The notes beneath the pieces were generated by a model. The model searched no databases and was not told the DNA's origin. It was given only the letters and a program-made list of their open reading frames with translations. Both the position numbers and the translations under genes were made by a program. Below, one piece after another: positions 321 to 44,158 of a DNA stretch of 64,000 nucleotides. This DNA comes from Marsupella aquatica (lineage: Eukaryota; Plantae; Marchantiophyta). The stretch spans positions 15,717,037 to 15,781,036 of the forward strand of contig OZ316891.1 of assembly GCA_973895155.1 (NCBI GenBank), read 5' to 3'. Every line of letters starts with the position of its first letter. Position 1 is the stretch's first letter.

Positions 321-776
321 TGTCACACCATTCTAGGTAGTGTTAGAGTGTATTGTACTATCTAGATCCGTATGGTTGGTATGTGTGCTTTATGAGCCGA
401 TAAGGTTCTGTTAGGTTTGTGTGAGAGGGTAGTTCTCTCTTGTGAGGCATCGAAAGGTTATCTTTTGATGTTGAGCCTTGGAGAGGAGAGCTTGGGTGGT
501 GGCTATGGTGGCTGAGAGCTCTCTCTATGTAGCATGGATTCCTTGAGTGCAAGGTGCATTGGCTCGACATATGTGTGTGATCAAATCGGACGGATTGAAT
601 GCATTTTGGTGTTGATCGTGGTTCATTCGGATTGAGATTATTGTGGGTTTTGGACATGTGTGGACATGAGTTCCACTACATTCCATTCTCTTGTGTTTGT
701 GATGTGGCAGTGTGACTATGTCTGGATGTATGTGACAAGCGATGTATGTTGTATAGCAATGTGTATGCGCATGACA
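321..776 (+). repeat. Left LTR
   Basis: TGTCACACC...ATGACA; direct repeat of 10004-10461 with scattered substitutions, many of them TG/CA pairs at former CpG sites. Confidence 0.93.
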
Positions 777-877
777 CATGTGACGTAACTATTGTCTCAA
801 TGTCAGCACAAAATCAGGTTCAAAGCTATGGAATACTTTCTGAAACTGCTCCTCATTGTATCTCTCAATAGTATAGG
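777..877 (+). repeat. Duplicate of the ~100 bp of recombinase sequence flanking the right LTR
   Basis: catgtgacgtaactattgtctcaatg...ctcaatagtatagg matches 10462-10562. Confidence 0.9.
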
Positions 878-909
878 GTTTAAACCCTAAACCCTAAATC
901 CTAAACCCT
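876..909 (+). repeat. Interstitial telomere-type repeats (AAACCCT)n
   Basis: gggtttaaaccctaaaccctaaatcctaaaccct at the junction. Confidence 0.75.
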
Positions 910-1195
910 CCTCCGCAACCTGCAATGTGTTGCCTGGCTGTTTTTTGAAGGAACTTGACTCTTGAAGTTGCAAGATTGTAGGGGTTGTTTGCTGCAAGCT
1001 GGTGTGTGCACATGCGCCATGTTTTGTGAATGGAAGAGCCCCCGAATGTTGCATTTTTTACATCTGATAACTGAACCTCGCATTTTTGTGAAGGAAGTAG
1101 CACCGGAAGTTGCTGCTTTTCCACCCGACGGGTCCGGATCCGAAAGTAGCCATCGTGTGCAGATCCGGATGACCGTCGTGGTCCGCAGATCCAAA

Positions 1196-1420
1196 CCGTT
1201 GCATTTTTTGTGAGGGGAAATGGTGTTTTGTTTAGCTGAATGTTGCCAATCCAAGCCATCTCTCCGGTGTAGCAAAGCGTTGCGAGCATGAAGCGCTCAC
1301 TCTTTGGCTCATCTCGTGGACTGTTGCATTTTGTGAGGGGAAATAGTGTTTTGTTTAGCCAAACATTGCCGATCCGAGCCATCTCTCCGACGTAGCAAAG
1401 CGTTGCGGGCTCACTCTTTG
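1196..1420 (+). repeat. Diverged ~125-bp tandem duplication
   Basis: gttgcatttt..gtgaggggaaat..tgttttgtttagc..ccatctctccg..gtagcaaagcgttgcg occurs at ~1196 and again at ~1321. Confidence 0.75.
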
Positions 1421-2273
1421 GTTCATCTTGGTGTTTCAAGGCAACTCATGGTTATTCAGGATGAGGGGCGGAGCAAGAGCGGGCGGGCCAGCAAGCCAGC
1501 TTGCTGGTACGTGAGGAGAATTTGCAAGTGTTGCAATTTTGAGTGCTAGGTTTGGTGCATAATGACAAGTGAGAGGTCACCCATCCCAAAGCTATTTTCC
1601 CCTCATGCACTTAACTAGCTAGTTCTTATGTGGTGCATTGTACATGCTTCCTTCCACATTGGTGTCCAAGGAATGAGGCCCTAGGGGTTTTATGCACTTC
1701 TGAAATCCATCTAAATACTCCGTTTGAACTTGTTTGCGGTGGATCCTTGGATAATTGACATTGGTTCCTTGAGGCCTATTATGAAGGCCCTACATTGGAC
1801 ATTATGAACATTGTGTGATCGGTTTGTGATCACTCTTGGTATGGAGAGTTGGACCCTCTCCACACACGCTTCTTGTCTATGCGCCATGTTAGTGTTGTGT
1901 GGGCGCTTGATTCCATAGGAGTGATTCGGGTTTGCAAGCGGATATTCTAGTTGTGTTGTGTATTTCTCTCATGGTGATGTTGGAGTGAAGCCCAACACAC
2001 CATGGTGCTTGTGGGCGACAGGGACAGATTGCCCCATTGGGGTTAGCACATAGATTAGATTCATGACTACGGTTTGAGTGTTTGGTCATCACAGATTCTT
2101 CTGGTGCTGCGGGGCCACCCGATGGACGGCAAACCAGTTTCACTCAGAGTGGGGTGAAATTTTGGCCAACGGCATTGGTAATAGTCAGCACTGCAACTTC
2201 AGATAGTGATTCTGGGGAGGACTTTGTGACCAGTTCTCCTCGTTATCAGGTGATTGCACCTTTGTTGTGGGAT

Positions 2274-3460
2274 ATGGAAGAGATGTACGGGGCTACAAAG
2301 GGCCCACGACAATACTCTGGTGCAGTTGGCATGATTGATCTGGATGACTTCATCCAAGAGTTTGATATGTGGTGCAATATGCAGACATTGTTTACCCCTT
2401 TCATGGCATGGAAGGGATTATTTCAGTATTTGGAGGGGCCACCCATGGATGATTACCATAAATTTTTGGAAGACTCATTTGGTTGAGATTGAGGCATGGA
2501 GGCAGCATTGGTCGCCTAATTATATGTCCATCATCTATGGCACTAGTGCGGTTGCCCAACCCATTGCCACAGCTGCTGCTTTTTCTAGCGGCACTAGCCA
2601 GAGTGGCACACCATCCACTAGTATCACTCCAGTAGCATCCACCGCTACTCCTACCGGTGTGATTGTAATAGGGACTGGAGCTACGTCAATATTTAACCTT
2701 GTGGTGGAGTTCTTTGAGGTACTGAAGTAGAACTATCAGGGTGTGAGAACTGATAAGTTGAAGGATCTCCAGGAGTTTTAACGCAAGACTGGAGATAGTC
2801 TACGTGAGGCATACACTCGTATGCGCAGATTGATCACTATCACCAAGGGAGTGACAGAGGCCCAAGCAGTCCAATTTTGGTATGCAATTCTGTACACATA
2901 ATTGCGACGCAGAGTGAGAGATGTCACTTTGCTTAGGGAAGTAGATCCTACATTGGCAGTTGTTTTTGAGCGCATTGAGCTCAATATGGTGAATAAGAAA
3001 GTGGTGACTTCCGGATTTTCCAAGAAAGCACCAAAAGCTGCATCTACACCCACATCACAGCCTATTGCATGCAAGAGCCAGAGGGAGAAGCCCACTACAC
3101 GGGAATCTACCAGTCAGAGACCTGTGCCTTCCTATGTTGGACTTGTGGTGGGGATCATGCATATCAATATTTCCCTGATCATAGAGGGCCAGGCGGGGCC
3201 TCAGCACCTGATAAGCACTAGTGTGATCATTGTGGAGCTCCTAGACACACCAAGGACAGGTGTTTCTCACTCCATTTTGAGTTATAGAGAGGAGAATAAC
3301 ATACACATGATCAGGGAATAGGAGGCAAAGATGGTGGTCGTGGCCGAGGTATGCCACATGTAGGAAGATAGGGAGGTGATGTTGCTCCTACTGTGACCAC
3401 AGATCCTAAGGATGCTAAGATTGCTCAATTGGAGCAACAACTAGCTGCTATGGCTAGTTC
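2274..3460 (+). pseudogene. Gypsy gag (frameshifted) with zinc-knuckle remnants
   Basis: DLDDFIQEFDMWC...FTPFMAWKGLFQYL; CWTCGGDH near 3135 and CDHCGAPRHTKDRC near 3220. Confidence 0.7.
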
Positions 3461-4079
3461 TTAGGTAAGACCTACTTCTAGTGATGGGGCTTCTACATTT
3501 CATGGAGCTTCCACATCTTATGGGCTTGATGGAGACCTTGCCACCATGGGATTCAGGTGTGGCACTGCGCATATTGATGCATCAGCAATTTTGACACATG
3601 GGGCAGCCAAAGCTCTTGAGCCCCAAAGAGCAGTAGTGGAGCTAGATCCACAGAGGGGGAATGCACGTTGTCAGACAAAGATTCCTCAATCTTTGATATT
3701 GTCAAAGATAGTTCAGACTGCCTCGATGAACCCAATTCGGACAAACCCTGGCGTGGGAAGTTGGCAGAATCACATGATGTTGCAGTAGGGATGACAAGTA
3801 CCTTGCTGGGGGCGGCTACCACCATAGTGCACACCCCATTATTTTCAAAAATAAATATGCTGACATTGGGGGTTGGTCTAGTTGATGTGTTTAGACTGGC
3901 AGCCACATTATGCGAGGATACTCCAACTTTGGCTTCTCATGCAAAGGCAGCATGCAGTTCTAGAGAGTAGCAAAGTTGACACTACCTACTGCTACTAGTG
4001 AGACATGGCATGCAGCAGTGGCAAAGTTGATGGATTTTCCAGCACACCCTACTTTTGAGAGGACTAGGTTTAAACCTAG

Positions 4080-4500
4080 CGTTGCATCATTGGATAATCG
4101 GAGTGGTATCTTTTGATTAGTTGGGCCTACTGGAGCAATATACCAACCAAAGATAGTGTTATTGGATATTGGTGCTCAACCCTTGATGTTGGGTAAGTCT
4201 GTAGTACAAGGATTGGGATTGTGTCCAGATGATTTGGAAGACTGCCCCTTTCCTATCCAGACTTCATTGGGGGGACCTACACCCACACAGCACATCACCA
4301 GATGACCACTTGACTTGCGGATTCACGAGGGTCATGCAAAGGATAGCTCCCACATACATGCACGACCTATTTTGACTAAGACAGATTCCTATGATGTGTT
4401 GGTGGGATGTACAGTACTGTACCCGATGGGATTTATTCTTGATTTCTAGGATGAATCAGTTTCATATCGACCTGATTGGCAATCAGGAGATGCTAGATTG
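4080..4500 (+). pseudogene. Gypsy aspartic protease
   Basis: VLLDIGAQPLMLGK (degenerate D-S/T-G active site) near 4157 and SYDVLVG near 4387. Confidence 0.7.
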
Positions 4501-4859
4501 AGAAGATTGCTAGTGCGATTTAGTGGACGTGTGGGAGGCCCTAGACCTGTACCATTGTCTTGGTAGCATTTGTGGTGTGATCACTGATCCTAATGACTTG
4601 ATTGAGGGTAATGCACATGCAACAGGTGTTCCAATAGTGGAGGAGTCACATGAGGAGTAGGTCATGCATGGGTTACCTGTTGGTAGTGTTGTGCCACCAG
4701 AATGGGGCACTAGCCAGGCCTTGCCATAGACAATAGCACGATTGGTACATGATGCATGGCGTCAAGCTTTTACACCACAGCTAAGAGCAGAGCAGTCTAC
4801 TGTAGGTGGGCCGGTGACTCTTTCACGATTGGATACCACTCCCATTGCATGGCAGTATC

Positions 4860-5810
4860 CACCAAAGGGTATTTGTTTGTTGGGATTAGCATTGGATTGG
4901 CTGTTGTTCTTCAGGCATGAATCCCAATGCGTCGTTACTTGTATGATTGTGCAGATAGATGAGACAGCATAGAGGGTCTCATTGCGCCATGTAGCTATGT
5001 TGGTGGATTGTTATTCACAGTTATTACCAGTGGATGTTGTTTGTGGCTATCAGCATGCATTGCCTGCTGATATTTCATTGTTGGGGGTGGATCATTTGGA
5101 TCGTGTTGGCCCCATTGATTTGGTGATTGTTGGTTGGCCATGTCAGGGCCAATCTAGAGCTGGAGTTGGATATGGACTTCATGATCCATGATTTGCATTA
5201 TTTTGGGAGATGTTATGGGTGTTGCGTCATCTCCAGTTGCATTAGACACAATCTCCAGCCTACAATATTGGAGAATGTGCCACTTTTGGGTGATCATCGT
5301 TAGCGGATTGTTGCCAGTATTCATCAGGTGAGGTCTTGGATTGGACATGCTGTGTTATTGGATGCTGCACGTGTGGGTTCTCGTGCACATCGTCCACGCT
5401 TGTGGTGGACTAATTTGTTACCAGGTGAGGTGTTGAAGCGAGCATTTGACAACATTCCTCGCTCGCCAATCTTGGTAGCGGATGAGATTTTGGATCCAGG
5501 TTGTCGTTCATAGGGTGTGACCCAGCTTGACGGATCTCCATTGGCCATAGTCAATGTGGTTGGGAGTCCACGTTGTGCATTGCCCACTTTTGTGAGTCAT
5601 TCTGCTTCATATGCTTTCAATGCATATGGTCCTGGACTTGTGTGGGATACGGCTCTACGACAGTTAGTAGAGCCCACTACTGATGAGAGAGAGCGGGCCA
5701 TGAGGTTCTCCACAGCTACAACTATTGTTGCATCTATGTTAGAGAGTTCACGTCGCCAGGTCCTTGGCCAAGCCATGGATTTGAATTGTTTGACTTGGAT
5801 TGTCAGCTTG
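4860..5810 (+). pseudogene. C5-cytosine DNA methyltransferase domain (DNMT3/DRM-like) inside pol
   Basis: Motif IV GPIDLVIVGWPCQGQSRAG (~5108-5164), motif VI LENVPLLG (~5268), motif VIII DAARVGSRAHRPRLWWTNL (~5361-5417), motif IX/X-like ERERAM and RRQVLGQAMDLNCL (~5684-5790). Motif I region (~4865-4900) appears partly deleted. Confidence 0.88.
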
Positions 5811-6149
5811 GGAGTAGTAGAGCAGTTCCGAATGCGCTCTGCTGGTGTTACAGATCATCCATTGGTGAGCTTGCAGCCTACTGAGACAATAGTGGCCACA
5901 GTTGGGGGCGCGCAGACAATCCATGGACCTATGGCAGGATTGGCCAAAGCTGGATAGATTGTTGAGAAGGAAGGGACTGCTCAAACTATTGCTAAATAGC
6001 AATCATTGGCTATCTCTACTACCCTACAAAATGATATTAGGGATTTGATGGAGAGTTGGGAGCCACAAATTGGTCATAAGTTGACAGGGGAGGAGAGACG
6101 TCGCATGCATCGATTCCTAAAAAGTTACTAGAATTGTTTTGCATTTAGC

Positions 6150-8500
6150 ATGAAGGATTTGGGGACATTGAAGGGCCCTGGTATTCAGATTGAATTGGCT
6201 AGTGATGCGCCAATCTTTCGTAGACCATACCGTTACAGTGACATGGAGAGAGCTTTGATTTGGAGCAAAACTCAAGATTTGTTGGAGGCTAGTTTGGTGA
6301 AGATCTCATACGGGGAGTATGCATCTGTCACAGTGATGCCAACCAAGAAAGATGTGCATGGTAATTACACGGATAGGCGCATGTGTGGTGATTACCGACC
6401 TATTAATAGTCAGAAAAAATCTAATCGATATGCCATGCCCACACCTGAGGAGATCTTTGATGTTGTGGGGCATGCAAAGGTTTTTAGTTCATTGGATCTG
6501 AGGGCAGGGTACCATCAGCTTCCAATCAGACATTCTGACAGGTCCAAAACAACATTCTAGGGAATTGGTAATGGTAATGGTAATGGTAATGTATTATAAG
6601 CTCCGGGACCATGAAAGTCAAAGGAGCTGCCACAAAAAGTAAAGTACAATGCAATCAAAGAAAAGAGCAACCAAAAGAGATTGCTCAGAAGAGGACAACT
6701 ATGTCCTCAAAGAAACTATGGACCTAGAGAGCCCTATGGACCTAGAGAGCCCTGAAAGATTTTCCAAACCTATTCTCCTTTCCCTATCCACCGCAAAGAT
6801 ATATCTTCCAAGTTGTTGAGGGGGCAGACCAAACAATGCATACAAATCTTTCACCAAGATTTGAGATGCCATCCTAACCCCCTCATAAAACTTGCAAGCA
6901 ATGAATACATGATATTCATTCTCTATACTAGAGCTATCACATAGTTGACAAACCCTCTTTTTCCTGTCAATATCCTTCCATCTCCCTTGTTCTACTTCAA
7001 GGTGGTGTGAGCTTAGTCTATACTGAGCAATAAGTTGTCTAAGTTGTACTGAGATAGTGCTAGATAAGTATTCTTGTTCTCGATATTTCTTCATGGGGTT
7101 CACATCTCTCATGTAGTATTGTTGCCGTGGGCTAGGTTCATGCCAAAGTTTGTGCAAAGCCTTTTGCTCAAGTTTTGCTCTTAGCTTGGTTGGGTGTGTT
7201 GGCCATTCATGTTCAGGAAAATCCCAAGCATGGGCCCACCTGCACACATCTGCATACCACCCTTTAGCTGAAGATGAGCGCAAGGCATGAAAAGGAAATC
7301 TGTTTTCCTCCAACTCTCTTACACGCATGATGTATTTGAGTGTGTGGAAGAGTGCCTCCACCTCCAAAGGAAACAAGCCTGCCTCTGCAAGTGTAAGTGC
7401 ATATGGGGTTTGTGACTTGATCCCAAGCTCCATCTCAAGAAATAGCTTTTGCAGCCCCTCAATCTGTTGCCACCCAGATTTAGACACACCTGCTCCCCAA
7501 ATTGGTGCTCCATAAAGAATGACTGGTTTCACCAAAGCTCCAAAGAGATGTTTCCTTAACCTCCAAGTGTGTAGACCAGCTCTTTTGCAAGCAATTGATT
7601 TGCATGGCAACTGAAGGATCGTGTGTATTAGTGATTGTTCTTACCATTTGGGTTGAAAAATGTACCAACTGAATTCCAGAGAGTCATGGATCAAATTCTT
7701 GTAGGTTTGGATTTTATTAGATGTTACATTGATGATATTTTGGTCTTTTCTTCCACTGTGGGAGAACATAAGCAGCACTTGCAGATTGTATTGGAGAGAT
7801 TGAGAGAACATGGGTTGAAACTCCACCCTAGCAAGTGTAAGTTCTTTCAAGACCAGATTGAGTATTTGGGTCACACTATCTACCCAGGGGGATTGGGTGT
7901 GCAACAGGATAAGGTGGAGGCCATTACAAAAATTTCTTGTCCTACTAATGTGAGTAGAGTGCGTGCATTCTTGGGATTGGCGAGCTACTACAGGAGGTAC
8001 GTTAAAGGATTTAGCCAGCTTGCTAAACTTTTAACCGTACTCACTAAGTTGGATCAGGAGTGGATTTGGGGTGATGACCAGGAGCATGCCTTTCAGGAGT
8101 TGAAAGAAAGATTGGCATCATCCCCTATTTTGAGAAGACCCATTTCAGGGAGACCATTCCAGCTACACGTGGAGTAGGACTTGAGTGCTGACTCAGAAGG
8201 ATGATGAGGGGAATGAGTTTGTTGTTGGCTTATGCTAGTAGATCAAACAATTCAGCAAAGGCTAAGTATAGCTCTTATGAGGGAGAGTGTTTGGCAGCAG
8301 TGTGGGCTATTGCACACTTTTGTTGCTACTTGTTTGGTAACACCTTCACCTTGATCACTGATCATCAGCCTCTCAAGTGGTTAATGGAGTCTGACAAGCT
8401 TACAAGGAAGCTTGCACGATGGGCATTGTTGTTACAGGAGTATGATTTCTAGGTTGTGCATAGGCCTGGAAAAGTGAACTTGGATGCAGATGGATTGAGC
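6150..8500 (+). pseudogene. Gypsy reverse transcriptase and RNase H, split by a LINE insertion
   Basis: RMCGDYRPIN, FSSLDLRAGYHQL, LPFGLKN, YIDDILVFS, AYASR...YSSYEGECLAAVWAI, TDHQPLKWL. Confidence 0.93.
6568..7589 (-). mobile_element. 5'-truncated LINE (RTEX/L2-like family, copy 1) inserted in the Gypsy RT
   Basis: Near-identical to the 3' end of 46454-49962, (CATTAC)n tail, TSD AATTG (6563-6567 / 7593-7597). Confidence 0.93.
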
Positions 8501-8689
8501 CGCAATCCATGTACCAGTCAAGAGGATGAGACTGGATCCAGATGACATATTGAGTCAAATAAGGAGATGGTGCCAGGATGGCATGCATTTGCCTTCCTTT
8601 GTTGGGTTCCAGCACACAGTGGATCTGTGGACTCTACTTCATTGGATGAAGTAGATGATGAGTCTACAAATATGGATGTTGGTGAGGTT

Positions 8690-9530
8690 GTGGTTGGACA
8701 ACAGGATATTCACAATGATGAAATAGTGTTGGAATACTTGCGCACTGGTTCTATTGGTGGCAGTGTTGATGCCAAGGAGCGTGACGGGGTTTTGCAAAGA
8801 GCCAAGAGGTTTCAATGGGAAGGAAACCATCTTTTGAGAGTACTACGTGATGGTAAGGTATTGGTGGTACCAAAACCATCACAACAAGTACATTTGGTGC
8901 GACATGCGCACGAGGAGTTGGGTCACTTTGGTGTGAAACGACTTACAGTTTGCTGTCTAGACACAGTATTGGTGGCGTGGTATGCACACTCATGTCCAGC
9001 AACTGATAGCTAAGTGTGTGGTTTATGATTGAGTGAGGGCATCATTTAATGCTCCCACTCCCCAGTTGCATCCATTGCCGATCATGGGTTTGGGGTACAG
9101 ATGGAGTTTGGACTTTGCAATATCATGATTTGCAAAGTCCAACTCCATTTGTACCCCAAACCCATGATCAAGGGTTTGTTTGGAGAGGGCAAGGATTTTT
9201 GAGAGAGTCATGCCCATGGTCTTTGACAACCTTGTTATTGCCCAACATCATGATACTTTGCGGTATGCCACTATTCGTGGAGGGGTTATCGTGCAAGGAT
9301 TTGACAATTTCATCCATGTGATTATGTTTATTTGCAGCAGACAGCATCAACGACACTTGATGTGACCGCAGATCGGACCATTTTGCGTGTGCATGAAGTG
9401 TTGCCTTCTAGTATCCTGATGTTGGAGGGATGTGATGGTATGATTGGTTTGAGAGGATCATGTGCACAACTGTGCACCATGTCATCTTTCAAACATTGAT
9501 GGTATAGTGGATCCAAGCTTAGCACATGTT
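8690..9530 (+). pseudogene. Gypsy integrase, catalytic core largely deleted
   Basis: HAHEELGHFG zinc-binding region; LHPLPIMGLGYRWSLDFA, then a jump to ERARIFERVMPM (post-core region). Confidence 0.8.
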
Positions 9531-9545
9531 TGTGCTGACTTGAAG

Positions 9546-9686
9546 TGTATGTTGTGTGGATCTGCTTAGGGAGCAGCTACTATGTTGATTTGTGATAAGT
9601 GTTCTAGAGGATGACACATGTCGTGTTTAACACCACCATTGCAGGTGATTCCTAGTGGATCATGGTTGTGTCCTCAATGTCGGTGA
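9546..9686 (+). pseudogene. PHD finger at the pol C-terminus
   Basis: CMLCGSA*GAATMLICDKCSRG*HMSCLTPPLQVIPSGSWLCPQCR* has canonical C4HC3 spacing with two premature stops. Confidence 0.9.
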
Positions 9687-9864
9687 AGCCAACTAGTTAT
9701 CAATATATTGTGTTCTCTTGGAAGATATGGATTGCAGGTAGGTGATCGATGGGGCTCACTTGCACTCGGCCTCTTGATCTTCACACCTGACCAGGTGTAT
9801 ATCACCCTTGTAGAAGTCATGGCTAGCTAGAGTTAGGGGACCTTACTCCCAGCTAGGGGGGCGA

Positions 9865-10001
9865 TTATGGATTTTGGACGTGTGTGGACATGAGTTCCAC
9901 TTGTATTCCATTCTCTTGTGTTTGTGATATGGCAGTGTGACTATGTCTGGATGTATGTGACAAACGATGCATGTTGTGTAGCGATGTGTATGCGCACGAC
10001 A
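9865..10001 (+). repeat. Partial third LTR copy (3' ~135 bp) directly after the PPT
   Basis: Follows aggggggcga (9855-9864), matches the LTR 3' part ending gcgcacgaca, and is separated from the full LTR by 'ac'. Confidence 0.85.
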
Positions 10002-10003
10002 AC

Positions 10004-10461
10004 TGTCACAACATTCTAGGTAGTGTTAGAGTGTATTGTACTATCTAGATCCGTATGTTTGGTATGCATGCTATATGAGCCGATAAGGTTATGTTAGGTT
10101 TGTGTGAGAGGGTAGTTCTCTCTTGTGAGGCATCGAAAGGTTATCTTTTGATGTTGAGCCTTGGAGAGGAGAGCTCGGGTGGTGGCTATGGTGGCTATGA
10201 GCTCTCTCTATGTAGTGTGGATTCCTTGAGTGCAAGGTGTGTTGGCTCGACATATGTGTGTGATGGGATCGGACAGGATTGAGTGCATTTTGGCGTTGAT
10301 CGTGGTTCATTCGGATTGAGATTATTGTGGGTTTTGGACATGTGTGGACATGAGTTCCACTTGTATCCCATTCTCTTGTGTTTGTGATGTGGCAGTGTGA
10401 CTATGTCTGGATGTATGTGACAAGCAATGTATGTTGTGCAGCGATGTGTATGCGCACGACA
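10004..10461 (+). repeat. Right LTR
   Basis: TGTCACAAC...CACGACA followed by TSD CATG. Confidence 0.93.
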
Positions 10462-11669
10462 CATGTGACGTAAATATTGTCTCAATGTCAGCACAAAATC
10501 AGGTTCAAAGCTATGGAATACTTTCTGAAACTGCTCCTCGTTGTATCTCTCAATAGTATAGGAGTTATTCTTGCTCTATCTCTCCTCAAAGCTGCATCAA
10601 TCAAGCACAAACCACTCCAAGAAAATGTCAAATTGAACACTGAACTGAATATCACCAAACTAAAACCAACAACTAATAGACTAAATTCAATTCTCCTCAT
10701 TGGACATAGTCTCGTCCCTCCTTATCCTGCCAGGTATTGATAACGTCTTGATGCAAGTCCCATAATTCTTGCCCTCCTCGAATCCCAAGCCTCACAAGGA
10801 AGAAGAAAGCCAAACGTTTTTGACAACCATGGGAGAAGTCAATCTGGTGATCCATATCAGACAGGGGAGCTTTCTCCATCTAATCTGTGAGGTTCGATAC
10901 CTGTCACAAGGAAACACACTCTTATCAGAATCCAAAAACACAGTTATGGTTTAGCAACAAGCTGCATAATTCACAACACAAATAAATGAAGCGTGTACGA
11001 ATTGGTCTTTTTGTTGATTCCTTCCTTTGCACTCTTCCTGATTGCAGCTTTCAGAACCAGTCAAGTTTTTGTGAAGCATGCATTGCTGATGTTGAAGTCC
11101 CTATCCACAACATTTTCATCCCCTCTCAAAGCTCTCATCTCGCTTGCATGCCTTATCACACAATTGAAGGCATTCATCAGGCCCATTAAAGAAGATGACG
11201 GGTACTGTTTGCCATCCAACTTCACAACCTGGGAGAAGACATTACTGAATAGCTCATCAAGCACCTCCAGAGGCAGATCCCCAAGTGGAATACTTGTGTC
11301 CCACTTCAGAGCAGTTTGAAGTAGATTCACACAGTTTGTGGCCCATCAATCGTTGTGTTCAGATCTACGCTTTTCTTTCCCTTTCCCTGCATTAGCCAAC
11401 GATGGATCAACAACAATCCTGAATCCAGGGACATTTACCTCTACCTGTATCAGCTCAACAAGAGGCTGAACAATAGCTTCGATCTGAGGCACGATTCCAT
11501 GATACAAAGGTTGGTTGATTGAAAGTGTGTCAACTTTTTTCTCGAACACATGGGATACATCGGACAGGCCAGGCAGATTGGAAGTTTCATTATCGAACAC
11601 AACGGACAAGTCGGACGGGCACAAAAGCTTGTAGGGCCCATTAGCCTCATCCAAGAACATGATGTCCAT
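10462..11669 (-). pseudogene. N-terminal and central part of the same Crypton/DUF3504-like tyrosine recombinase, broken by stops or frameshifts
   Basis: ORF pieces 11346-11669, 11061-11330 (VFSQVVKLDGKQYPSSSL, Crypton-type DGxxY motif) and 10697-10879 (FFLVRLGIRGGQELWDL, box-I catalytic Arg). The frame ending FEPDFVLTLRQYLRHM abuts the LTR. Confidence 0.7.
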
Positions 11670-13239
11670 GTCTCTCCTTCTTCCTCTCCCTCAACAAACA
11701 TCAGATCACTGTCATGAGAATCCCCCATCCTTCGACCCGCACAACCTTTGCAACTATGCAACACTGAATTAATTGAACCAGTTATGGCAGAAAACAAGCA
11801 GAGCTTCTTGACACACTGAGCCATGTTCTTAGTGAGTCGATCATGTGATGACCTTATACTAATTACATAACAGGGATCTGAGAGCAAGAACACAAAGCGG
11901 ATCCACATTTTGAATCAGCTGAAGGGGCGAGCGCACAGCACATGCATGCATGCAACTCAAACTAGATTGAAATCTCCACCGTGCTCGCGCCACCCTAAAC
12001 AGATTTTGAAAACTGCAAGAGCACAAAGCAATGCCACCATAGAAAACGATTTCAAATGCAGTGAAATTGACAGCAGCTCGATGCCCTTTCAGCAACTTGA
12101 TGACTCAGCTGCTGCACTCGCCTCCCCGTTTGGCTGCTCGCATTCAGCCTCCTGCTTAGCGCTTTGACCTTCAATCTTGCACTACTCGCGCCTCCCACTA
12201 ATGCCTCCCACTCTCGCATTGCTCGCACCTCCCACTGCTCGAGCGCAGCTGACGCCTACATCCCATTCGCCAAAACGGATTTAGCCGGTAACCAACAGGG
12301 TCGACCTAGATTACGCAAGTTAGCGCAGATCTAGGCCATCCATTAGTAGGCTTTACCGGTGTTCCCCGGTTCTTCCAGACAGTTTCTCGGCTACGCCGGT
12401 CAACTTCCTGTCAGAACCTGGTCACCCCGTTACAGCCCAATAACGGCTGCCTAGAGCTGTTATCCTATACATCGCTCTCCCTCCCTCCCTCCGTCCATGC
12501 TCGGCACTCCTCCTCCCTCCCTCCTTTCCCATCAATCCTCCTACCTCCCTCCATGCTTGTCATACCTCCCTGAACGTCAGGCCAACATCAGCGTCAATGA
12601 GCCAAGGGGGACGGAGCATTGCAAAGGGGTCAATGCACCGAGGCAGAGGGTCGCTGGAGGATGGGGAGCGTCATGGAGGGGAGGGGAGGGGAGGGGAGGA
12701 GGCAGAGTCGGCCGCGCCTGAGACGGCCGAGAGGAGGCACGGCCGTAGGGTAACAGCCGAGAGGAGGGGAGGGAGGGGGTCCAGGTGCAAGGTAAGGGAG
12801 GGCATTGGCGAGCCGAGGGACGGGGGCACACGGCATCGCGGCACAGGGTGGTCCCCGCAGGGTGGTCATTGCACTGTGCAGTCCGAGACGCTAACTTCTT
12901 CCTGTGATTTTATTTTCCTTCATTCCTTCCATTTCCTACACTTCCAATTTTCTCATGCAAAAAGGCCTGGCATTTTTCAACAACTACCACTGTAAAAAAG
13001 GATTTTGATTCACTAGGGCCGTAGTCCTCCTGCAAAGCCACCTTGATGGATTTGATTTCTACCTTTTTGTTCAATAACTGCTTAAATGGATTGATTCATT
13101 TTTTAAAGTACCTGGAGAAATGGGGAGGTAGGATTTTACATTGGGAGAAGTTTTTCAGAGCTGGTCAATCCCTAGTGAGTACTCCTTTAAGTCTGCTTTA
13201 AACCACAACTGCCCCTAAAGAGCTCTGGGTTACCTGTAC

Positions 13240-13720
13240 CTCTCATTATCAAGTGCACAGGTTAAGGAATGGGCTTGAACTCCGCAAAAGGTGGTGAATG
13301 ATTCACCTATTGTTGGCAAGGTCTCCACCTTTTATGGTGAAACACTCTCATTATCAAGTGCACAGGTTAAGGAATGGGCTTGAGCTCCACAAAAGGTGGT
13401 GAATGAATTACCTATTGTTGGCAAGTGCTCTACCTTTTATGGTGAAACACTGTAATCGCATGCAAGTGCTCCACCTTTTACTGTGAAACACTTTTATCAC
13501 TGCACAAAAGGTGGTGAATGAATTACCTATTGTTGGCAAGTGCTCTACTTTTTATGGTGAAATCGCATGCAAGTGCTCCACCTTTTACTGTGAAACACTT
13601 TTATCACTCCACAAAAGGTGGTGAATGAATTACCTATTGTTGGCAAGTGCTCTACTTTTTATGGTGAAATCGCATGCAAGTGCTCCACCTTTTATTGTGA
13701 AACACTTTTATCACACCACA
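13240..13720. repeat. Minisatellite, period ~105 bp, four core copies
   Basis: Core aaaaggtggtgaatgaattacctattgttggcaagtgctc.accttttatggtgaaa repeated four times with two alternative linkers. Confidence 0.88.
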
Positions 13721-14349
13721 GGAATGAGGAGGAGCAATAGGGGCTTTTACATCTGACGGTGGTTTAATTAAGCAGTTGTGCCGTGCAATTTTACTTTAAT
13801 TCGCACACTCCAACTTCTAGTCAATGATATCTCGAATTACAAAGAGATTAACAGGAAGAGTTCGACGGTGGATGTAGTTGGAAATACTCAAATGGGGGGA
13901 ATTCTCTTTCAAAGTGCTAAGATTTGTCTCTTGGGAGGAGATATGCCGGTTCAAGCAAGTTTTGATTGGAGTTATCAGTCACTGGAGCTTGAAGTGTGGG
14001 AATAATGGTTGCCAACCAGTATCCAGGCCCTGCCCAGTAGAGTCTTACAGGGGCATCGAAGGGTAAAAAGTGGGTAAATCCGAAGGAAAATCATTGGGGG
14101 AGTATTGAGGCTTGGAAAGGGAGATCAGAAAGTCTAGCAATTTATCTAGGACATGTCCAATATTTCTGGCAAGCTTTGGAACATATACAACTGGCACAAA
14201 TAAGTAATGGATGGAGGCGCTTCAGTTAAGTCCTTGCAAATCTGGAAATGAAAACAACTCGCATCAAGTCAGAGGAGTGAAACAAAGATCTCACAAGTCG
14301 AGAATAGACTGGCTAAACAACATCAGATACAAGATGAAGAGTTCTGCCT

Positions 14350-26120: not shown

Positions 26121-26184
26121 ATCAGGATCTAGATCTTCCAAGTCTAGCATCCCAAATCAAGCTCAACAGACATTGGTAAGTAGG

Positions 26185-29100
26185 TATGGTGCGTCCCATG
26201 GCTCTCTAAACCCAAGAACCTCCCCTGAACAAGTCGATTCCCACCGGTTTTGCTCTTGCCAAGGCCGGTTTTGTGGCTTATCGGGCATGAAACATTGCTA
26301 ATTGCTTTACTAACTTCCCCGCTAACTTCTTACCCACATATACTAGACAAATCCTTTATCAGGTCATGAGATATGTAGCCAGCCTACTCTAGGCCTCTCC
26401 TTATCCCCTTCTATAGGTCTCCCTTCAGGTATATTTGGATTCCACCCCCGGAATGATGTCCAATTGGCTTGGGTAGCCGCTAAGATCTCTCTCAGCTTGA
26501 CACATCCAACTCTTACTACTTCTTATGACTTCACTTAATTCCTTTCTATCCTGTAGTTGATGTGGGCAATCTTCACACAAGTTGATGCGACACACAAATA
26601 GAAAAATGACTCATACTGACTAAATTATGCCGTGCAATTGCCATACAAATAGTACTTCTCATACACAAGATCTGCAAACTAAGCCAAAAGGCCAACTCTA
26701 TTCAGCTCTTAGGGCTGAGGAAACATGAATATATACAAGAGTCACTGCATAACTAGCCGAGAGCTTCTTTTACTAATTGATCCTAGCCTTGCTGGTGCAC
26801 TAAAAACTTGCCAAGAAAAAGCCATAAACTCCCCGTTGCTCAGGTATTTATCCTAGTAGCACACCTACTTATTTCCTTGTTGTGTAAGCCTAATCTATTT
26901 CTAACTGTAATCTACCTATGTACAAGGAGGCAAGAGCACAAGTGTTGCTCTTACCAATGGATCTACAATCTTACTAATCTAAGTGTCAGGGTTGCCTCTT
27001 GGCCTTGATCCTAATCCTAAATTTGGAGGTCAGCACCCACTCTGCCCACTCAGGCCTCCTTCCTCCACGTCCGCACCCTCTAAAAGGGACGGCCCTCCAC
27101 AACCTTCATGATAGTGGTGGCTGGCCCCCAATGGATGCCCCCAATCCTTCCTCCTTGGCCTCTGTCAGGTTACCTGCTCCCGACTGGGTCAACCCATCCT
27201 TGGCACGACCGGGTCCCACTTTGGCCTCGGCCTTGGCCTCGGCTTCTACTACCTCCCCGACATGAAGAAGTTGTGGGTCCATTGTTGCAGCTTTGGCCCT
27301 GGTAGCCCCGGCTTTGGCCTCTTGGCCAAAGTGGTCCTCCTCATAGGCTTGTCCTACAAGGCGGGTTGTCTCCTCTTCCCAAGGTTGCGGTTGATGCCTA
27401 TCAATGATTGGCGACCCTGAGTTGGACCCCTTCATGGCCGCTCCTAGCTGGTCTTCTTGGCCAACTTCCAAGACTGCCAACTTAACTGCTGTGACCTTGC
27501 ATAAGGCTAGTGCCATGCTCTCTACCTCAGTCACGTGGCCTGAGGAACCGTTGTCATCGGGATGGATAATAGAGGAAAGGAAGTGAAGGCCTTATTCTTG
27601 AGTTGGAAATATTTGGTGAAGGGATTCAGTTTTGGTGTGAGTTTTGTTGTGTTGGAGAAAGTTCAAAAAGACAAAAGAGGAATAAAACAAGCAAAAGTTG
27701 AAGCTTAGACTTAAGGAAATAGAGACTATTACTGTGGTTGAGACACGTGGCATCCTGTGAGCACATTTCATAAGGGTCAGATTCAAAGTAAGACGCGAAG
27801 AGGAGGATCGGAAGGAAAATAACGGCCGATCGAAGAAGGAAGTTAGGGAGGAAGTTTGCGAGGAGTAGACAACGGAGAGTGAGGCGCAATCGAGGTTCAG
27901 GAGGGGGATAAGGAAAATGGCCGAACGTTGGCAGAGTGTCGTGTGGTTATTGGAAGATTTGGGAAGTGAATGAAAAACGGGCCGTGCTGCCGATCGTAAG
28001 AGTTGTTGGGAAGTCTTCGGGAGAACAAGGTGAAGCTGGCGAAATGCTGAAGACTGAGAAGGATATAAAGATGCTCGGTTTTTGTGGTGATTGTCTTTGA
28101 AGAAAATATATCTGAATGAGGATTTCAGGGAGAGGCCGCGCGTTATGAGGTTGAAGGGTGAAAACGGCCGGTGTGGTGTGTGGATTAGATTTTCGGGAGG
28201 AGGCCTGCGTGATGGAGTTTTGGGGAAATAGACAGTGAAACAGCCGAATGTGTGGTTATGGAGTGATTTTTGGTCATGGACAAAGCAGGACGGAGTAGAG
28301 ACAGAATTCAGGGAGAAGGAAAGGAAAACGTGAATCAGAGATTGAGTTCGAGTATTCTGAAGAAGAGTTAGAGTTATAAAAAGAGTTGCGTACGTCATCA
28401 TGGAGGTTAAGAAATTTGGTGAGATATGAGCTCGGGGGTTGGGAGGAAATCATTCATTGCTGCTGTAAATGAGGAAGCAAAGAGCGAAGGAATGCGAGGA
28501 ACCAAGAAGTGCCTAGGGAAGAGACAGGCAAAAGAAAGATGGAAGGGCTATGGATGATAAGGAAAACATGATGAAATCTTGTGGATCGGGAATGGAATTG
28601 GCAGGTGCTGTTGGAGGATCGGTGAATGAAGAGCGTATGGCTTGTTGGTGAATTTGGAAAGAGAGACAGCAAAAAGAGAAAAGATCGATAGTGGCTTTGG
28701 GGACAAGGAAGATCGAGAGTTCTAGGGAGTGAAAGTCGGCTTTGAATCGTTGAAGAAGAGTGGCAAAGGCCGTGGCGTTATTGAATTTCAAAAGGGAGGA
28801 AGGATGCGGATGGGGAGTCAACTCTCCACTGTAATGACTAGCTGATCGTGAGTTACTGTGGAGGATCGAGCTGAAAGTTCACGTTCTTGGGTGAAGTGTG
28901 TTAGGCAGAGTCTGTGCGGGAGTAAAGGAAGACCTGATACACAAATGAGAAGTGAATCATATAAGAAAGACAGGCTTTGGTGTATAAGAATTTGGAAGGA
29001 ACCCATGAATTGAGTGCTCTGGTACGGAGACTGCACATAGACGATACTGACTCGGAAGTTGTTCCATTCGACATGATAGGGAGGAGATGGAAGCTATTGA

Positions 29101-32944: not shown

Positions 32945-34452
32945 GGTGGTGATGCCCAATCAGGGGGAAATGGAGAACCGTGCCTCCGCCCGAGGGGCCC
33001 AGTTCAACGTTCCTTAATAATTTCCTCCTTGGTCCGCAGCAACCGTGTGCGCCTATTGCAGGGGCCAAAATCCTCACACAGTCCATGAAGTAGATCAATG
33101 ATCTCCACAAATATCTTCAACAGATCAAAACTTCTCCTTCTTCCATTATTAAATAGACTGTCATGGAAGGCTTGGGAGGAGCTGCGTGCCCATCTGGCTT
33201 TTTGTCCTGGGAGATATGGTGCCCCTGGACGCTGGAGCATTAACGATGCAATTAGATGTATGGTAGATTTCAATTCATTGCCAAATGTGGACATTGTAGG
33301 AGTCACTGCTATTTGTGGACGCTTGGGAATGAGATCAATTCAGGACGGATGGTCGGTGGAGACAGGGGGCTGGAAAGACCTTCCGCTTAGGGGGCAGGTG
33401 CTGCGAGGATTCACGGGGGAGCACAGAGGGCTGGCTAGAGCGTTCCTAGGGAGAATTTGGGAGTCAACTGCCTGCAGGTGGGACAGGGATCCTCCGGCCA
33501 GACAGTGGCGCTGGTCTGACAGGGTAGAACCTCTCAAGGACTTTCAGATCACCAACTGCAGGGTCTACCAGTTCTTGAGACCCAAGATGAGCCTTCATGT
33601 GTTGCTTAATAGGTGCTGGTCCTCACACCGGTCGGAAATTGAATGGTGCATTGGATGGAAGAAGCTGTGGATTTCTGACCTCTCCTGCAGGGCAAAAACC
33701 TTTATCTGGCAGATCTTGGTTGGTGGATTGTTTACTGGTCAACGGGCCCTCCGTATCCAGGCTGGTACTGGGAATTGCAAGCTTTGCTGTGGGGTCTTGG
33801 AGACGATGCAACATTTGTTCATTGAATGTTCCCATGCCTCATGTTGCTGGAGGATGTGTGACAGGATTTTGACGGAGCTTCGCTTACCCATTGGAGGTGG
33901 TCTGCTGGCTATTCTTGATGCATCGACAGGACCGGAGCCTATTCACACTGCTAGGATCTTTTGTGTATATCAGACTCTCTGGATGATTTGGCTGGGAAGA
34001 AATGAACATATGTTCTCTGACAAGGTGGGACGTTCATTTGACTTGGGCCTGATGCTTGCTGAGACTGCCAATCACATCCATGCGGTTGGGGCTGGTTTAC
34101 GCTTTGGGCGGCGTCGCTCTCGGTTGAACCGGGCTCAGGAATGGTTGCGGGGAACGAGGCAAATCTGGCTGAGACGGGGTGGGGACAGGATTCTCTTGGT
34201 GCCCTCTAGCGGCGGCGTTGCTGATTGAGGGGTCTGCTTTTTGGGGGGCTGCTGTGGGAAGGGCATGGGTGCTCTCTTGATCGGTGTTATTTCCCTTCTT
34301 TGAGGGGGGGCTCTCCCTGGGGCTTTGATGCTCTCTTTTGTGCTTTTGGGCTCTCTTTGTGGCTTGCTAGTGTGCTGTTGCTGTCCCTGTATTAAGGGCT
34401 GTTGTTCCCCCTATCCGTGGGGTCTTTCACGGTATTAAAATTTATAAAAAAA
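32945..34452 (+). mobile_element. 5'-truncated L1 LINE (ORF2 C-terminus with zf-RVT) with 3' UTR and A-tail
   Basis: ORF 33098-34228 contains WKKLW...KTFIWQIL...CKLCCGVLETMQHLFIEC...LWMIWLGRN; A-run at 34446-34452. 5' boundary approximate. Confidence 0.85.
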
Positions 34453-36566
34453 ACCATTCCAAGGAAATAGACTGTCATTCCGAGCAAGCCAAATATGCCA
34501 GAGCACTTGATACATCATGAAGACTATCAATGAGCGAGCAAGGGTGTGGCCATAAAATGCACCCATTAGTGCTCTCAGATCACCTACAGGCCATGTGATC
34601 AAATCTGGAAAAGTCCTGGCAACCAGTTCCCAACCTTGGATAGCAAGCTTGCAAAAGAAGAAGTGTGGGGTATGGTCTCAGGAACATGACAGCACAGACC
34701 ACAAGTACCATCACCCTTACCCATCCTCAATGCCCAGACGTTAGGGAAAAGCCCTTGTGCAATCACTCTCCAAAGAAATGTGCGAGACTTTGTGGGGAGA
34801 TCAGACAACCAGAGTGAGTGCAAAAGTTTACTCCACTCCAAGTCAGAGAGATGAAGCGACCAGATGCGGTTGAGCCTAGTAAAGTCACTGCCCTTTGTGC
34901 AAAGGAGTTGGTATGCTCTAGCATTGGGAAGGGCAAATTGGCTCATTCTCTCTTTTTTTTCCGCCCAGATCCAACACGCTGCTGAAGAACCAACCTCCCT
35001 GTCATCTGTAATCCTTCTGATTCTCCTCACAAAGGAGATGCACAGCGCCTCCAACTCCCGGTCCAAACCTCTGATCTTGTTGAGCTTGTGTCGGGCAAAT
35101 TCCGGAGTGTTGCCACCCTAGCGTTTGAGATTAGAGACCTTTCTCAGACCAATTTGGCTGCAAGTCCGGATCAGCATACCTTTTGTTTCTTCTGGAAGAT
35201 CCTAAAACCCTTCTAGACTCTTGATGATATCTTCAATGCTCCACCAAGCGGCCACAGCAGCACCAGCAAGCAAAAATAACAAGTGTGTATGGAGTGCTTC
35301 CCAGGCTTTCCAGAGACTGCCAGTAGCTCAGTCCGCTGAATGAGCAAGGATAACACAATAGGAGGCGGTCAAAGAGGGAATAGCCATTTCTCCCGATGGT
35401 CTTGTGGTTACGCCATTTTGCCATTTTCAAATTCTTGTAGTAGAGCTTGGCCCAGTCTGTGTCCGGGTGATCAAGCGCCTGGTAGAACCATTGTGCTAGG
35501 AGTGTATCCAAGTGGCTCCTAAATTCCTTGAAGCCCAACCCACCTTCAACCTTTGGGCGGGCCAATGTCTTCCAAGCCACTAGTGGCACCTTTCTCCCCC
35601 TTGCAGCGTTGTAACCCAAGGAAATCACCGCATAGAGCTACCATTTTCCTGGCCAGAGCACTCGAAGAATGTAAGAACATCATATGGTAAATGGGTACAG
35701 CTTGAAGAACATGTTTTACTAGTATAGTCCTGCCCGTGAATGATAAAAACCTGTGGCCCACGTAGAGAGCCTGGATTCAATTTGATCGAGACAGAAAGTG
35801 TGGAGCTTGGAGGCCTGTATCCCCCAACCCAAAGGAGCACCCAAGTACTTCTGAATTTCCCCTTTCCGGCTAATAGTGCAACCTGTCTTGACAAGCCATT
35901 CCAAAATCTCTCGAGTCCCAAGGGAATAACAGTCAACTTATGAAAATTCAGTTTAGCACCCGATGCCAACTCATAACACTCTATAGCTTGTCTGGCCCCA
36001 TAAAAATCCTCGGGAGTAGCAGGAATAAACATTCTGAGGTTGTCAGCAAAGAATTTGTAACATATCGTCAACACCTTCGATATCTGAATTCCTCTCAGGG
36101 TGCCTTGTGCCAGTTCTCCATCTAAGAAATCCATGAATGGTTGGGTCGATAGTACAAACAGTAGAGGAGAGAGTGAGCAGCCTTGGCATAGTACTACGCC
36201 TCTTAGCATTCAAATGTCCTTAGAGAAGAGGCCATTAATGTGAATCTTAGAGCTGACTAGCTTGATGAAGTGACTCCCGATTCCCAAGAGGTGCAGGGAT
36301 TCCCAAATGTAAGTATGGTTGACCCAATCAAACTAAGGCTTTCTCAAAATCAAGCTTGAGGAACAAGGATTTTTCCTTTTGGTTCTTACCCAGTCTGCTG
36401 TAAGCCGCACTGTAGAAATGTTCTCAAGAATGTGTCGTCCTGGAATAAAGCCAGATTGCTAGGGCTGATCAGATGGTTCAGCAGTGGTTTTAAGCGTTTG
36501 GCTAGGAGTTTGGCTATAATCTTGTATGTCGTATTAAGCATCGTGAGAGGCCTCTAGTCCTTCAAT

Positions 36567-39321: not shown

Positions 39322-39324
39322 TCT

Positions 39325-39973
39325 ACTCAAGTTTTGAGAGAACTCCACCCCAAGGTATTTGTAGGTCCTCACAAATTCCACCAGATTCCCTTGGAAGTAG
39401 AGCTCTGGATTTTGTCGTGTGCCAATGCCCAAACACTTGGTCTTCTTGAGGTTGACTACCATCCCTGTTGCTTGACAAAACTCCTCCAAGGCATTGAGAT
39501 GTCTTTGCAAAGCTTCTTGAGCATGAGCAAGTAGGACCACATCATCTGCAAATATAAGAAGTTGGAGGACAAACCTACCCAATTGAGTGCCAACTCCACC
39601 ATGCTCCTCCAAAATGTTGTGTAGCTGATCAATGAAGATGCCAAAGAGAGTTGGTGAGAGAGGACAACCTTGGATCACCCCAAGAGTGCTCCAGATTTCT
39701 TCAGAGGTTTCCTTTGAAAGTTTGATACGCACTTCTTGGTACAATTTAGAAACAGCCAACCTGAGCTCTTCAGGCACTTCCAACTCCACCATCCTATCCC
39801 AAAGCTTGGATCGGGAAACTTTGTCAAAGGCCTTGGAGAAGTCCACAAACAAGCAAAATAATGGTTTATGTGGAGATTTGGCCTTTTCACACAACACCCT
39901 CAAGCAGAGAATGTGATCCATAGTGCTGAATTCTCTCCTAAAACCTGCTTGTGAAGGTGCCCTTTTCATCTCA
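39325..39973 (-). mobile_element. Extra internal RT fragment of the same LINE (copy 2b) fused to the 5' end of copy 2a
   Basis: Duplicates ~37656-38304 with a few SNPs. TSD TCAAT (36562-36566 / 39971-39975) brackets 2a and 2b together. Confidence 0.9.
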
Positions 39974-42900: not shown

Positions 42901-44158
42901 CCTTGTATGTAGTAGAGAACCTTCCCAAATGACTCGGCAATTCGTTTCCTGCATCCCTCCAGTACTAATGCTCAAAATGGTAGCTCAATCCAAACTGGCA
43001 ACTTCGTGTATGAGTCGCTACTTGCATCAAACGAGGGATCCCAAGGAAAAGGAAATACAAATTTCCAGTCCATGAAGAAGGGGGCCAGTTCCAAAGCTGC
43101 GTCTCAATGCTCTGGAAATTCAAACGTGATCACATAAAAATTCTTCCCAGCGAATTTGATTTGAGTTATCGCCCAGCCCAAGTCGCGGTTAAATACCGAT
43201 TCGGCCCAGTCCCTGAAAATTGGTAGGAGTGGTGGGCGGTCTGTGAAATAGCACATCAAAGTCAAAGTCAAATTCGTTGTATAGTTCAAAATCATTGTGT
43301 AGTTGTATAGTTATGTAATAGAGAGAGTAGCCTCCTCTATAGACCACTGAATCCTGGTGTGGAGCGTGTTAGGCCAATCACCAGTGGAGCTGATGGCAAT
43401 TTTCCGTAACATTTCCAAACATGTATTTGGAAGTTCATCAGAGAGCTCAGCAAAGTCATCCTCATTAGTATGTTGAGTTCTTGCTGCATTACCGTTCTGT
43501 GGCTGCCTACTGCTTTCTCTTGGTCTTAGCTCCTCCTGTTGAGCATGGCTTGCAACCTCTAGCTACAGTCCCTGTGCTTCTATAGTGTGGGACCTCGGCC
43601 CTCTCGGGGGACCCACTGCATTTTGTACCAGAACAACATCAGGAGTTGAGTTCCTAGGTGCCCCTCTCTTGCTTGCAGGCGAGTTAGGTCTCGAGGAATG
43701 GTGAGCCTGTAATTCGAGTTCCACCGCTTCCTCCGCCTCTTGTATGTCTAAGTCCATCTGATTGGCCCATGAAGGTTTGGAGCGTGGGATGAACCTTTTG
43801 CTGCTAGGCCTGTTGCCTTTATCTGTAGTTGCTTGGCGCCCATCCGCATTGCCAAATAGATCAGAAGGAGAAAACTTTGGCCCGCCCTAGCATCTTGCAG
43901 GGACAACCTTGTGCTACCGGACCGCTCCCCAACCCATCGTCCTCCTTCTTCCTCTTCAATTCGTCTGACACCTAGAACGGAGGGATCCCGTCCATCCCCT
44001 CCCATATCCATCGATCGATTCTAGTGAAAAGAGCCCATAGTAGAAGATAGTGTCGATCCACACCCAGGGCCCTGACCATAGCCAATTTGCGTCCGAGGTC
44101 CCACCCCGCTAAAAGGATCCATCTATTCTAGTCGTGATGCTTAGCAACCAACTCCTTG

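Follow-up and report, generated by a model that had tools for sequence, protein, structure and literature searches.

The window, by which we mean the whole 64,000-nucleotide stretch of Marsupella aquatica DNA that was analysed, carries one decayed Ty3/Gypsy element (321-10461, flanked by a 4-bp target-site duplication, TSD) from a family whose DNMT3-like cytosine methyltransferase (DNMT) domain is, by sequence comparison, almost certainly family-encoded and under selection. The domain closes a first open reading frame (ORF1) that runs Gag-protease (PR)-DNMT, and an in-frame stop separates ORF1 from a part with reverse transcriptase (RT), RNase H (RH), integrase (IN) and a PHD finger. Pfam scans and tblastn, relatives included, gave the domain order Gag-PR-DNMT-RT-RH-IN-PHD for the window element, with the following features:

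317-320, + strand: 5' target-site duplication CATG; the flanking minus-strand frame continues across the empty site
321-639, + strand: repeat A1, which begins TGTCA, the left end of the element
640-877, + strand: repeat B present once more (640-776), then CATG (777-780) and some 95 bp from the 3' flank; the window copy is rearranged here
878-1500, no strand: non-family filler that opens with CCCTAAA-type repeats and replaces the A1-internal junction; low summed depth, with identical low-depth contigs at 949-1495
2274-3300, + strand: gag, broken, with two zinc-knuckle-like Cys/His motifs (3135-3152, 3222-3239); tblastn to Marchantia P0010 (Mp_4g09160), PF03732 weak (E=0.057)
3979-4530, + strand: aspartic protease region, broken, motif at 4159-4179; no Pfam match in the window copy, Asp_protease_2 in relatives
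4865-5810, + strand: DNMT3-like C5 cytosine methyltransferase domain with stops and frameshifts; motif I damaged, motifs IV, VI, VIII and X present
5997-6005, + strand: in-frame stop TAG followed by CAA TCA (CAR-YYA), common to the family, the end of ORF1; putative readthrough signal
6048-6557, + strand: N-terminal part of the RT (Pfam, tblastn)
6566-7589, - strand: young 3' LINE fragment inside the RT, 99.9% identical to 36566-37589
7614-8460, + strand: C-terminal part of the RT (YIDD at 7725-7736) and RNase H; RVT_1 E=3.5e-24, RT_RNaseH E=8.8e-24
8807-9440, + strand: integrase, zinc-binding and C-terminal parts kept, catalytic core mostly deleted near 9120-9176
9546-9680, + strand: PHD finger after the integrase, at the end of the polyprotein (PF00628, E=5.6e-11)
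9853-9864, + strand: polypurine-tract-like CTAGGGGGGCGA ahead of repeat B1; the same motif precedes B in relatives
9864-10001, + strand: repeat B1, which terminates in GACA
9998-10008, + strand: internal B-A junction GACA-AC-TGTCA, 2 nt between unused copies of the element ends; same form in L061 and L063
10004-10323, + strand: repeat A2
10324-10461, + strand: repeat B2, which terminates in GACA, the right end of the element
10462-10465, + strand: 3' target-site duplication CATG

The window copy is dead, as the preliminary description of this DNA had claimed together with a damaged motif I: it has stops and frameshifts, a LINE in the RT and a deleted integrase core, of which about 170 residues are absent. 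In place of the deleted part (9080-9170) lies a short stretch copied in inverted orientation from the adjacent upstream sequence. The stretches 321-877 and 10004-10562 are 94.6% identical (K2P 0.052), and taking them for ordinary LTRs was rejected on the A/B repeat layout and the TSD positions. The rearrangement at 640-877 could have arisen when the 3' junction was copied during repair, or it could represent a solo A-B unit. In the low-copy filler at 878-1500, plant telomere-type CCCTAAA repeats lie exactly at the rearrangement junction.

Pfam scans of 54 further and 9 longer ORFs of the window returned mobile-element domains only and no host gene. The element interrupts a decayed minus-strand frame (2-319 and 10462-11690) that is continuous across the empty site. 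The C-terminal part of this frame may resemble Crypton/DUF3504 tyrosine recombinases in one motif; the frame had no Pfam or Atlas match. A very young LINE family is found at 6566-7589, 36566-39981, 46619-49962 and 62753-64000, with copies 97.7-100% identical, an ATGGTA-type repeat tail, one EN-RT frame of 1071 codons and a CpG o/e of 0.10; one copy is nested in another. An older second LINE-type element (33089-36209 and 39969-42971; zf-RVT, RT, endonuclease and zinc-knuckle) is split by the young LINE. The window also has a tandem array with units of about 105-115 bp at 13240-13771 and a weak Transposase_24 (En/Spm) match on the minus strand at 56413-57096 (E=0.0013). GC-rich long frames at 52463-55606 had no Pfam match and, with a diverged 1-kb repeat at 26184-27171 and 51429-52434, are probably another mobile element.

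The six-frame translation showed the DNMT domain on the + strand, where motif I, which is damaged, occupies about 4871-4930 and is followed by GWPCQG (5132-5149), LENV (5268-5279), AHRPRLWWTNL (5385-5417) and LGQAMD (5763-5780), with a frameshift near 5263. Motifs IV, VI, VIII and X thus follow one another on the pol strand between protease and RT, where they had been placed before. The PF00145 search that had been proposed as a check left the window DNMT alone at the borderline: with 20 bits (E=5e-4) it stays just under the threshold of 22 bits, which the relative P0004 passes (46 bits). The C-terminal half of the window domain is 79% identical to P0004 (E=1e-90), and the alignment of the window DNMT with P0004 is collinear without gaps of intron size; this and the intact ORFs of the locus L061 agree with the earlier statement that introns are absent. 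When solved structures were searched, the N-terminal half gave DNMT3C as its best match (E=0.035), and no methyltransferase was among the matches of the C-terminal half.

The relatives gave a clearer picture of the domain. The C5 methyltransferase motifs I, IV (PC), VI (ENV), VIII (RxR) and X are in canonical order and intact in P0004, P0010 and P0051, and loose patterns recovered the catalytic motifs PC, ENV and RxR in 121, 123 and 126 of 137 relatives, respectively. A profile built from 15 relatives ranked DNMT3A first (E=9e-20, 74 bits), ahead of DRM (36 bits) and M.HhaI (26 bits), and the predicted structure of the relative P0011 (pLDDT 60.6) had DNMT3A/B as its top Foldseek matches, with DNMT3A best at E=4e-14. 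An Atlas search with the L061 domain returned generic DNA_methylase clusters only. Judged by profile bits and Foldseek, with trees that contain no host DNMT3, the family domain resembles DNMT3 more than it does DRM or the bacterial enzymes, which upholds the DNMT3-like assignment made at the outset.

Relatives of the window domain are numerous. Its C-terminal half matched 47 long proteins, including ones from Marchantia, Calypogeia, Riccia and Sphagnum; those of the three liverwort genera are 44-76% identical over the matched parts, with 58-68% for the best full-length matches. The L061 DNMT domain had 62 relatives, and the DNMT profile collected 510 clusters (50% identity) at E<=1e-30. Closterium and Klebsormidium nitens are the named algal relatives. 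With named members in three liverwort genera and in Sphagnum, such elements are not rare in land plants, and the view that they are no standard feature of land-plant Gypsy lineages calls for correction. A first metagenome scan with P0004 and a viral scan found no locus. Copies were then examined in contigs of the runs X1-X4, which may include the source of the window DNA, and 80 family loci were located. The domain is present in these loci and is therefore no one-off fragment, a point on which a check of family copies had been called for. Thousands of contigs cover all 30 of the 30 element bins in each of the four runs, and the DNMT bins are as deep as the gag and RT bins. Judged against the low-depth contigs at 949-1495, this suggests a copy number in the hundreds, the summed depth itself being no copy number. 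One subfamily supplies most of the 80 loci as near-copies, and some insertions are represented twice (3 pairs among 19), so that the independent lineages number about five.

Selection was estimated from stop-free copies. The dN/dS of the DNMT domain was 0.12 for both L060/L061 and L061/L063, and that of the RT 0.04 for L061/L063. Among decayed copies of the main subfamily it was 0.3-0.9 for DNMT and RT alike, values that are due to decay, with many distant pairs saturated. The domain might in principle have been captured from the host a single time, as a fragment, or be a string of motifs that arose by chance, a reading to which the score of the window copy by itself, below the Pfam cut-off, could lend some weight. 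This reading is vanishingly improbable and was ruled out by the hundreds of relatives, the intact ORFs and the purifying selection.

Three architectures were distinguished among the relatives. Group I, to which the window belongs, has Gag-PR-DNMT and ends after the DNMT; group II has a single ORF PR-DNMT-RT-RH-IN (for example P0069, P0070 and P0073); group III has RT-RH-DNMT-IN-PHD. Group III is large (P0082, P0087, P0130, P0154 and 29 of the best 150 profile matches), and one member has a G-patch. Quick, unrooted DNMT and RT trees, built without host DNMT3, divide groups I and III alike, with a support of 99 for group I that fell to 77 after more rows were added. In the DNMT tree the window adjoins P0004 inside a Calypogeia/Marchantia/Sphagnum-like branch (support 99). 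This placement and the plant-type CCCTAAA repeats point to a host among the land plants, probably a bryophyte. From the protease through the DNMT, GAQ93235.1 (P0261), a protein of K. nitens, aligns collinearly with P0004 (31% over 554 residues, E=6e-60). It forms a separate branch in a quick unrooted tree with no outgroup and no K. nitens RT, and is a candidate for the element published from this alga; the likeness to Klebsormidium elements that had been pointed out extends this far, and common descent may lie behind it.

The element published from K. nitens is KnitGypsy-Dnmt3, a Gypsy element with DNMT3 and a DIRS-like repeat layout (de Mendoza et al. 2018, PMC5890265, legend of Fig. 4c); the DIRS repeats are spelled out as A1-ORFs-B-A2-B in the review file of that paper. 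It shares with the present family the Gypsy domains, an intronless DNMT3-like domain, A-coding-B-A-B repeats and purifying selection. It differs in its reading frames: its authors describe one ORF that holds DNMT, RT and RNase H, and in the present family the conserved stop sets the DNMT apart from the other two. The main text of PMC5890265 contains the term PHD 0 times, and we came upon no mention of readthrough, self-priming or TSDs for KnitGypsy-Dnmt3.

The DNMT had been described as lying inside pol; it does lie between PR and RT, but it ends the Gag-PR-DNMT ORF1, with the stop before the RT. Group I proteins end 57-164 residues past the DNMT domain unless they are truncated or modelled across a gap, and the end of P0004 coincides with the window sequence TAG CAA TCA (5997-6005). 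At these positions, which lie in one of the deepest bins, no variant reached 10% in any of the four runs X1-X4; at the nearby window stop at 5955, by contrast, about 99% of the depth disagrees with the window. We examined 81 sequences for the stop and scored the 57 that had an RT anchor; the other 24 (short, truncated or missed by the pattern, including L063 and L069) were left out of the count. An in-frame stop was found 16-24 codons ahead of the RT anchor in 57 of 57 sequences and was followed by CAR-YYN in 55 of them, against a background of 0.8%. It occupied the conserved codon in 51 of 51 sequences, and any of the 81 other codons tallied had a stop in at most 7 of the 51. A single open PR-DNMT-RT frame, for which a test in young copies had been suggested, exists in other relatives, those with single-ORF forms; in group I the stop is conserved even in the intact L061, where two open frames of 1369 and 1047 codons are joined by TAG CAG TTA, the sole stop.

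The sequence CAR YYA is the readthrough signal of TMV, with about 20% readthrough in planta (PMC2754532); the ratio of Gag to Pol that retroelements require is roughly 20 (PMC2194720). Six of the 57 anchored sequences, the window and L061 among them, have the strict form CAR-YYA, which L063 also has. From its conservation and context, we consider that the UAG-CAR-YYN stop of the family is probably read through. By the inferred readthrough, protease and DNMT would be made at the level of Gag. The pol part might instead be made by reinitiation, by splicing or from a second RNA, with ORF1 simply ending after the DNMT. The weaker context CAA CCC, that of the commonest subfamily, predominates, and 47 of 51 loci have an ATG two codons past the stop, which would also allow reinitiation. 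The seven proteins of the Klebsormidium branch (P0261, P0094, P0317-P0321) likewise all end a few residues past motif X; these ends suggest a recoding site there too. Such routes are nevertheless improbable. The linkers of 78, 100, 113, 131 and 133 codons are unalignable and yet the stop stays in frame with the RT and keeps its CAR-YY context, and the second frame of L061 has its first Met only at residue 117, inside the RT. No shared RNA structure downstream of the stop stood out among six sequences with one fold each and without shuffles, which fits a signal that consists of the context only.

Readthrough at UAG-CAR-YYA is known from TMV, and in-frame stops are known from MuLV, SIRE1 and Tca2 (PMC2754532, PMC2194720); the family has in common with these systems an in-frame stop ahead of the polymerase part and the CAR-YYA context. 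In the present family the stop follows protease and methyltransferase and not Gag, and one subfamily has mostly CAA CCC.

The terminal repeats of the family are permuted. Two complete direct LTRs at the element ends were absent from the loci; instead, TSD-bounded A-coding-B-A-B was found at four sites (the window, L030, L055 and L057/L059) and TSD-bounded A-coding-B at three (L018, L035 and L075). The full form reads A-coding-PPT-B-NN-A-B, where PPT is the polypurine tract. The elements start with TGTC and finish with GACA, or decayed forms of these, and have matching TSDs, of 4 bp at the 7 full-length sites and at the rearranged L046. The internal GACA-NN-TGTC junction recurs in the distant L061 and L063. 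In L051, L054 and L055 the sequence directly behind A1 matches, as a perfect complement of 15 nt, a site that lies 28 nt downstream of the TATAAA inside A, and such self-priming complementarity of at least 10 nt (score 10 or more) was present in 11 of 19 loci. No primer-binding site (PBS) was found in the window copy, where it is invisible because the filler replaces the A1-internal junction. L061 has an rve match and integrase motifs of the D,D(35)E type, and Pfam scans of the L061 ORFs and the window pieces showed no tyrosine recombinase.

These repeats can be related to a replication route. Given that priming can start behind A and that a PPT precedes B, the product of ordinary reverse transcription is a linear B-A-coding-B-A molecule, and the integrated form is a circular permutation of this molecule, opened at a B-A junction. 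Nicks after CA at GACA-NN-TGTC would leave 2-nt extensions of the kind that integrases use. The A-B junctions are not uniform: L030 has inserted letters, and L045/L046, a single rearranged insertion, retains PBS (post-A) letters, as would be expected of end-joining. A circular cDNA intermediate is therefore somewhat favoured from the repeat layout. Against the circle stands that a plain 2-LTR circle has two equal B-A junctions and so predicts the mirror product A-B-A-coding-B as well, which was not seen: B lay upstream of the 5' A repeat in 0 of 19 loci (16 sites). The A-coding-B form is no proof of 1-LTR circles, since recombination between B1 and B2 can also yield it.

The main rival to the circle is a templated route like that of PAT and Ngaro elements, in which the transcript reaches B2 and the internal B1-A2 junction templates both ends, without end-joining of two LTRs. 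PAT and Ngaro have split direct repeats in the same arrangement, A1-B1-A2-B2 (PMC4157794), the uniform polarity of the 19 loci would be less surprising, and four of nine A-B junctions agree letter for letter, which inheritance would explain. For an LTR composed of B+A, however, the positions of the PPT and of the self-complementary site are exactly those that canonical priming requires, some A-B junctions carry extra or PBS letters, and the 4-bp TSDs, the DDE integrase and the absence of a tyrosine recombinase do not fit, so that we regard this route as rather unlikely. PAT/Ngaro elements, SymbioDIRS-Dnmt3 included, share the A1-coding-B1-A2-B2 layout (PMC4157794), and SymbioDIRS-Dnmt3 carries a DNMT3 that was active on CG in yeast; the present family is distinguished from them by its DDE integrase, 4-bp TSD, PPT and Gypsy-type RT and has no tyrosine recombinase.

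With the linear integration of retroviruses and LTR elements the family shares CA-3' ends, the 2-nt extension, a short TSD and the DDE integrase (PMC11054761). A circle-junction precursor was proposed in 1984 and ruled out for retroviruses (PMC11054761), whereas the permuted repeats here point to one. The REXdb Ty3 lineages Tcn1, Phygy and Selgy are likewise Ty3 elements of non-seed plants, and self-priming is predicted for Tcn1, a mark known from Tcn1/Tf1 (PMC6317226). They differ in that the present family has a PHD finger and no chromodomain, and a methyltransferase is not among the domains listed for REXdb; Marchantia and Klebsormidium are not named in the main text of that paper (PMC6317226).

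On balance, we lean towards a life cycle in which ORF1 encodes Gag-PR-DNMT up to a stop that is likely leaky, and in which the DNMT, probably packaged, would methylate the cDNA of the element itself; this cDNA would probably form a circle ahead of insertion. A minority of the ribosomes would continue past the UAG-CAR-YYN stop, and the protease would free the DNMT inside the particle. Self-priming and priming at the PPT would yield the linear B-A-coding-B-A cDNA, whose ends would be joined to create the A-B junction. The DDE integrase would then nick after CA on both strands at the internal GACA-NN-TGTC junction, and insertion with a 4-bp TSD would yield A-coding-B-A-B. The target of the DNMT would be CG in this cDNA; the PHD finger would steer the integrase to chromatin. 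Gag-level amounts and a circular stage would give the DNMT time and substrate. That the cDNA is its main substrate has a little less than an even chance on these grounds. Methylation of cDNA was proposed in 2018 for DIRS elements (PMC5890265). The CpG o/e of the element (0.39) lies between those of the window (0.46) and the LINE (0.10) and is uninformative on self-methylation.

The DNMT might also be active apart from or after reverse transcription, at the insertion site or on host chromatin, or serve as a DNA- or RNA-binding module, and not act on cDNA in the particle. Roles of this kind are also listed by de Mendoza et al. (PMC5890265). They would go with the varying position of the DNMT in related groups (PR-DNMT-RT, RT-RH-DNMT-IN) and with the Klebsormidium Gypsy domain, which gave no methylation in yeast, a result that its authors deem inconclusive (PMC5890265). 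Conversely, the catalytic PC, ENV and RxR are kept in most relatives, and the fusion to Gag/Pol places the domain in the particle, which makes a role away from the cDNA unlikely. In LTR elements generally, fusion to Gag or Pol brings a domain into the particle.

In its widest form, the reading that we prefer would describe an old streptophyte Gypsy lineage, abundant in bryophytes, that regularly integrates circularised cDNA by a DDE integrase acting at an internal att junction and whose leaky-stop DNMT3, made in the amounts of the capsid protein, pre-methylates the cDNA of copies bound for chromatin chosen by the PHD finger; in this generality it is offered tentatively, as less likely than not. 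The kind of element has been known from the alga K. nitens since 2018; the conserved stop and the occurrence in land plants appear to be new. In the literature covered, which includes few subscription journals, neither copies in land plants nor readthrough nor integration from a circle had been described for the family. The wording 'streptophytes' in PMC12344493 and in bioRxiv 10.64898/2026.05.21.726589 means that land-plant copies may already be in their trees.

DNMT3-bearing Gypsy elements, in print for one alga, are now found in land plants, including Marchantia. LTR finders that demand two full LTRs would overlook the family, and gene models appear to count ORF1 as a host methyltransferase or to splice across the stop, as P0007, P0017 and P0037 indicate. 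Permuted repeats flanked by clean TSDs suggest that a DDE integrase can, in a natural element, carry out insertion from a circle, a route that was discarded for retroviruses. The conserved stop predicts the amount and the place of the DNMT, and Marchantia makes the question raised in 2018 testable, namely what purpose a transposon has for a DNMT.
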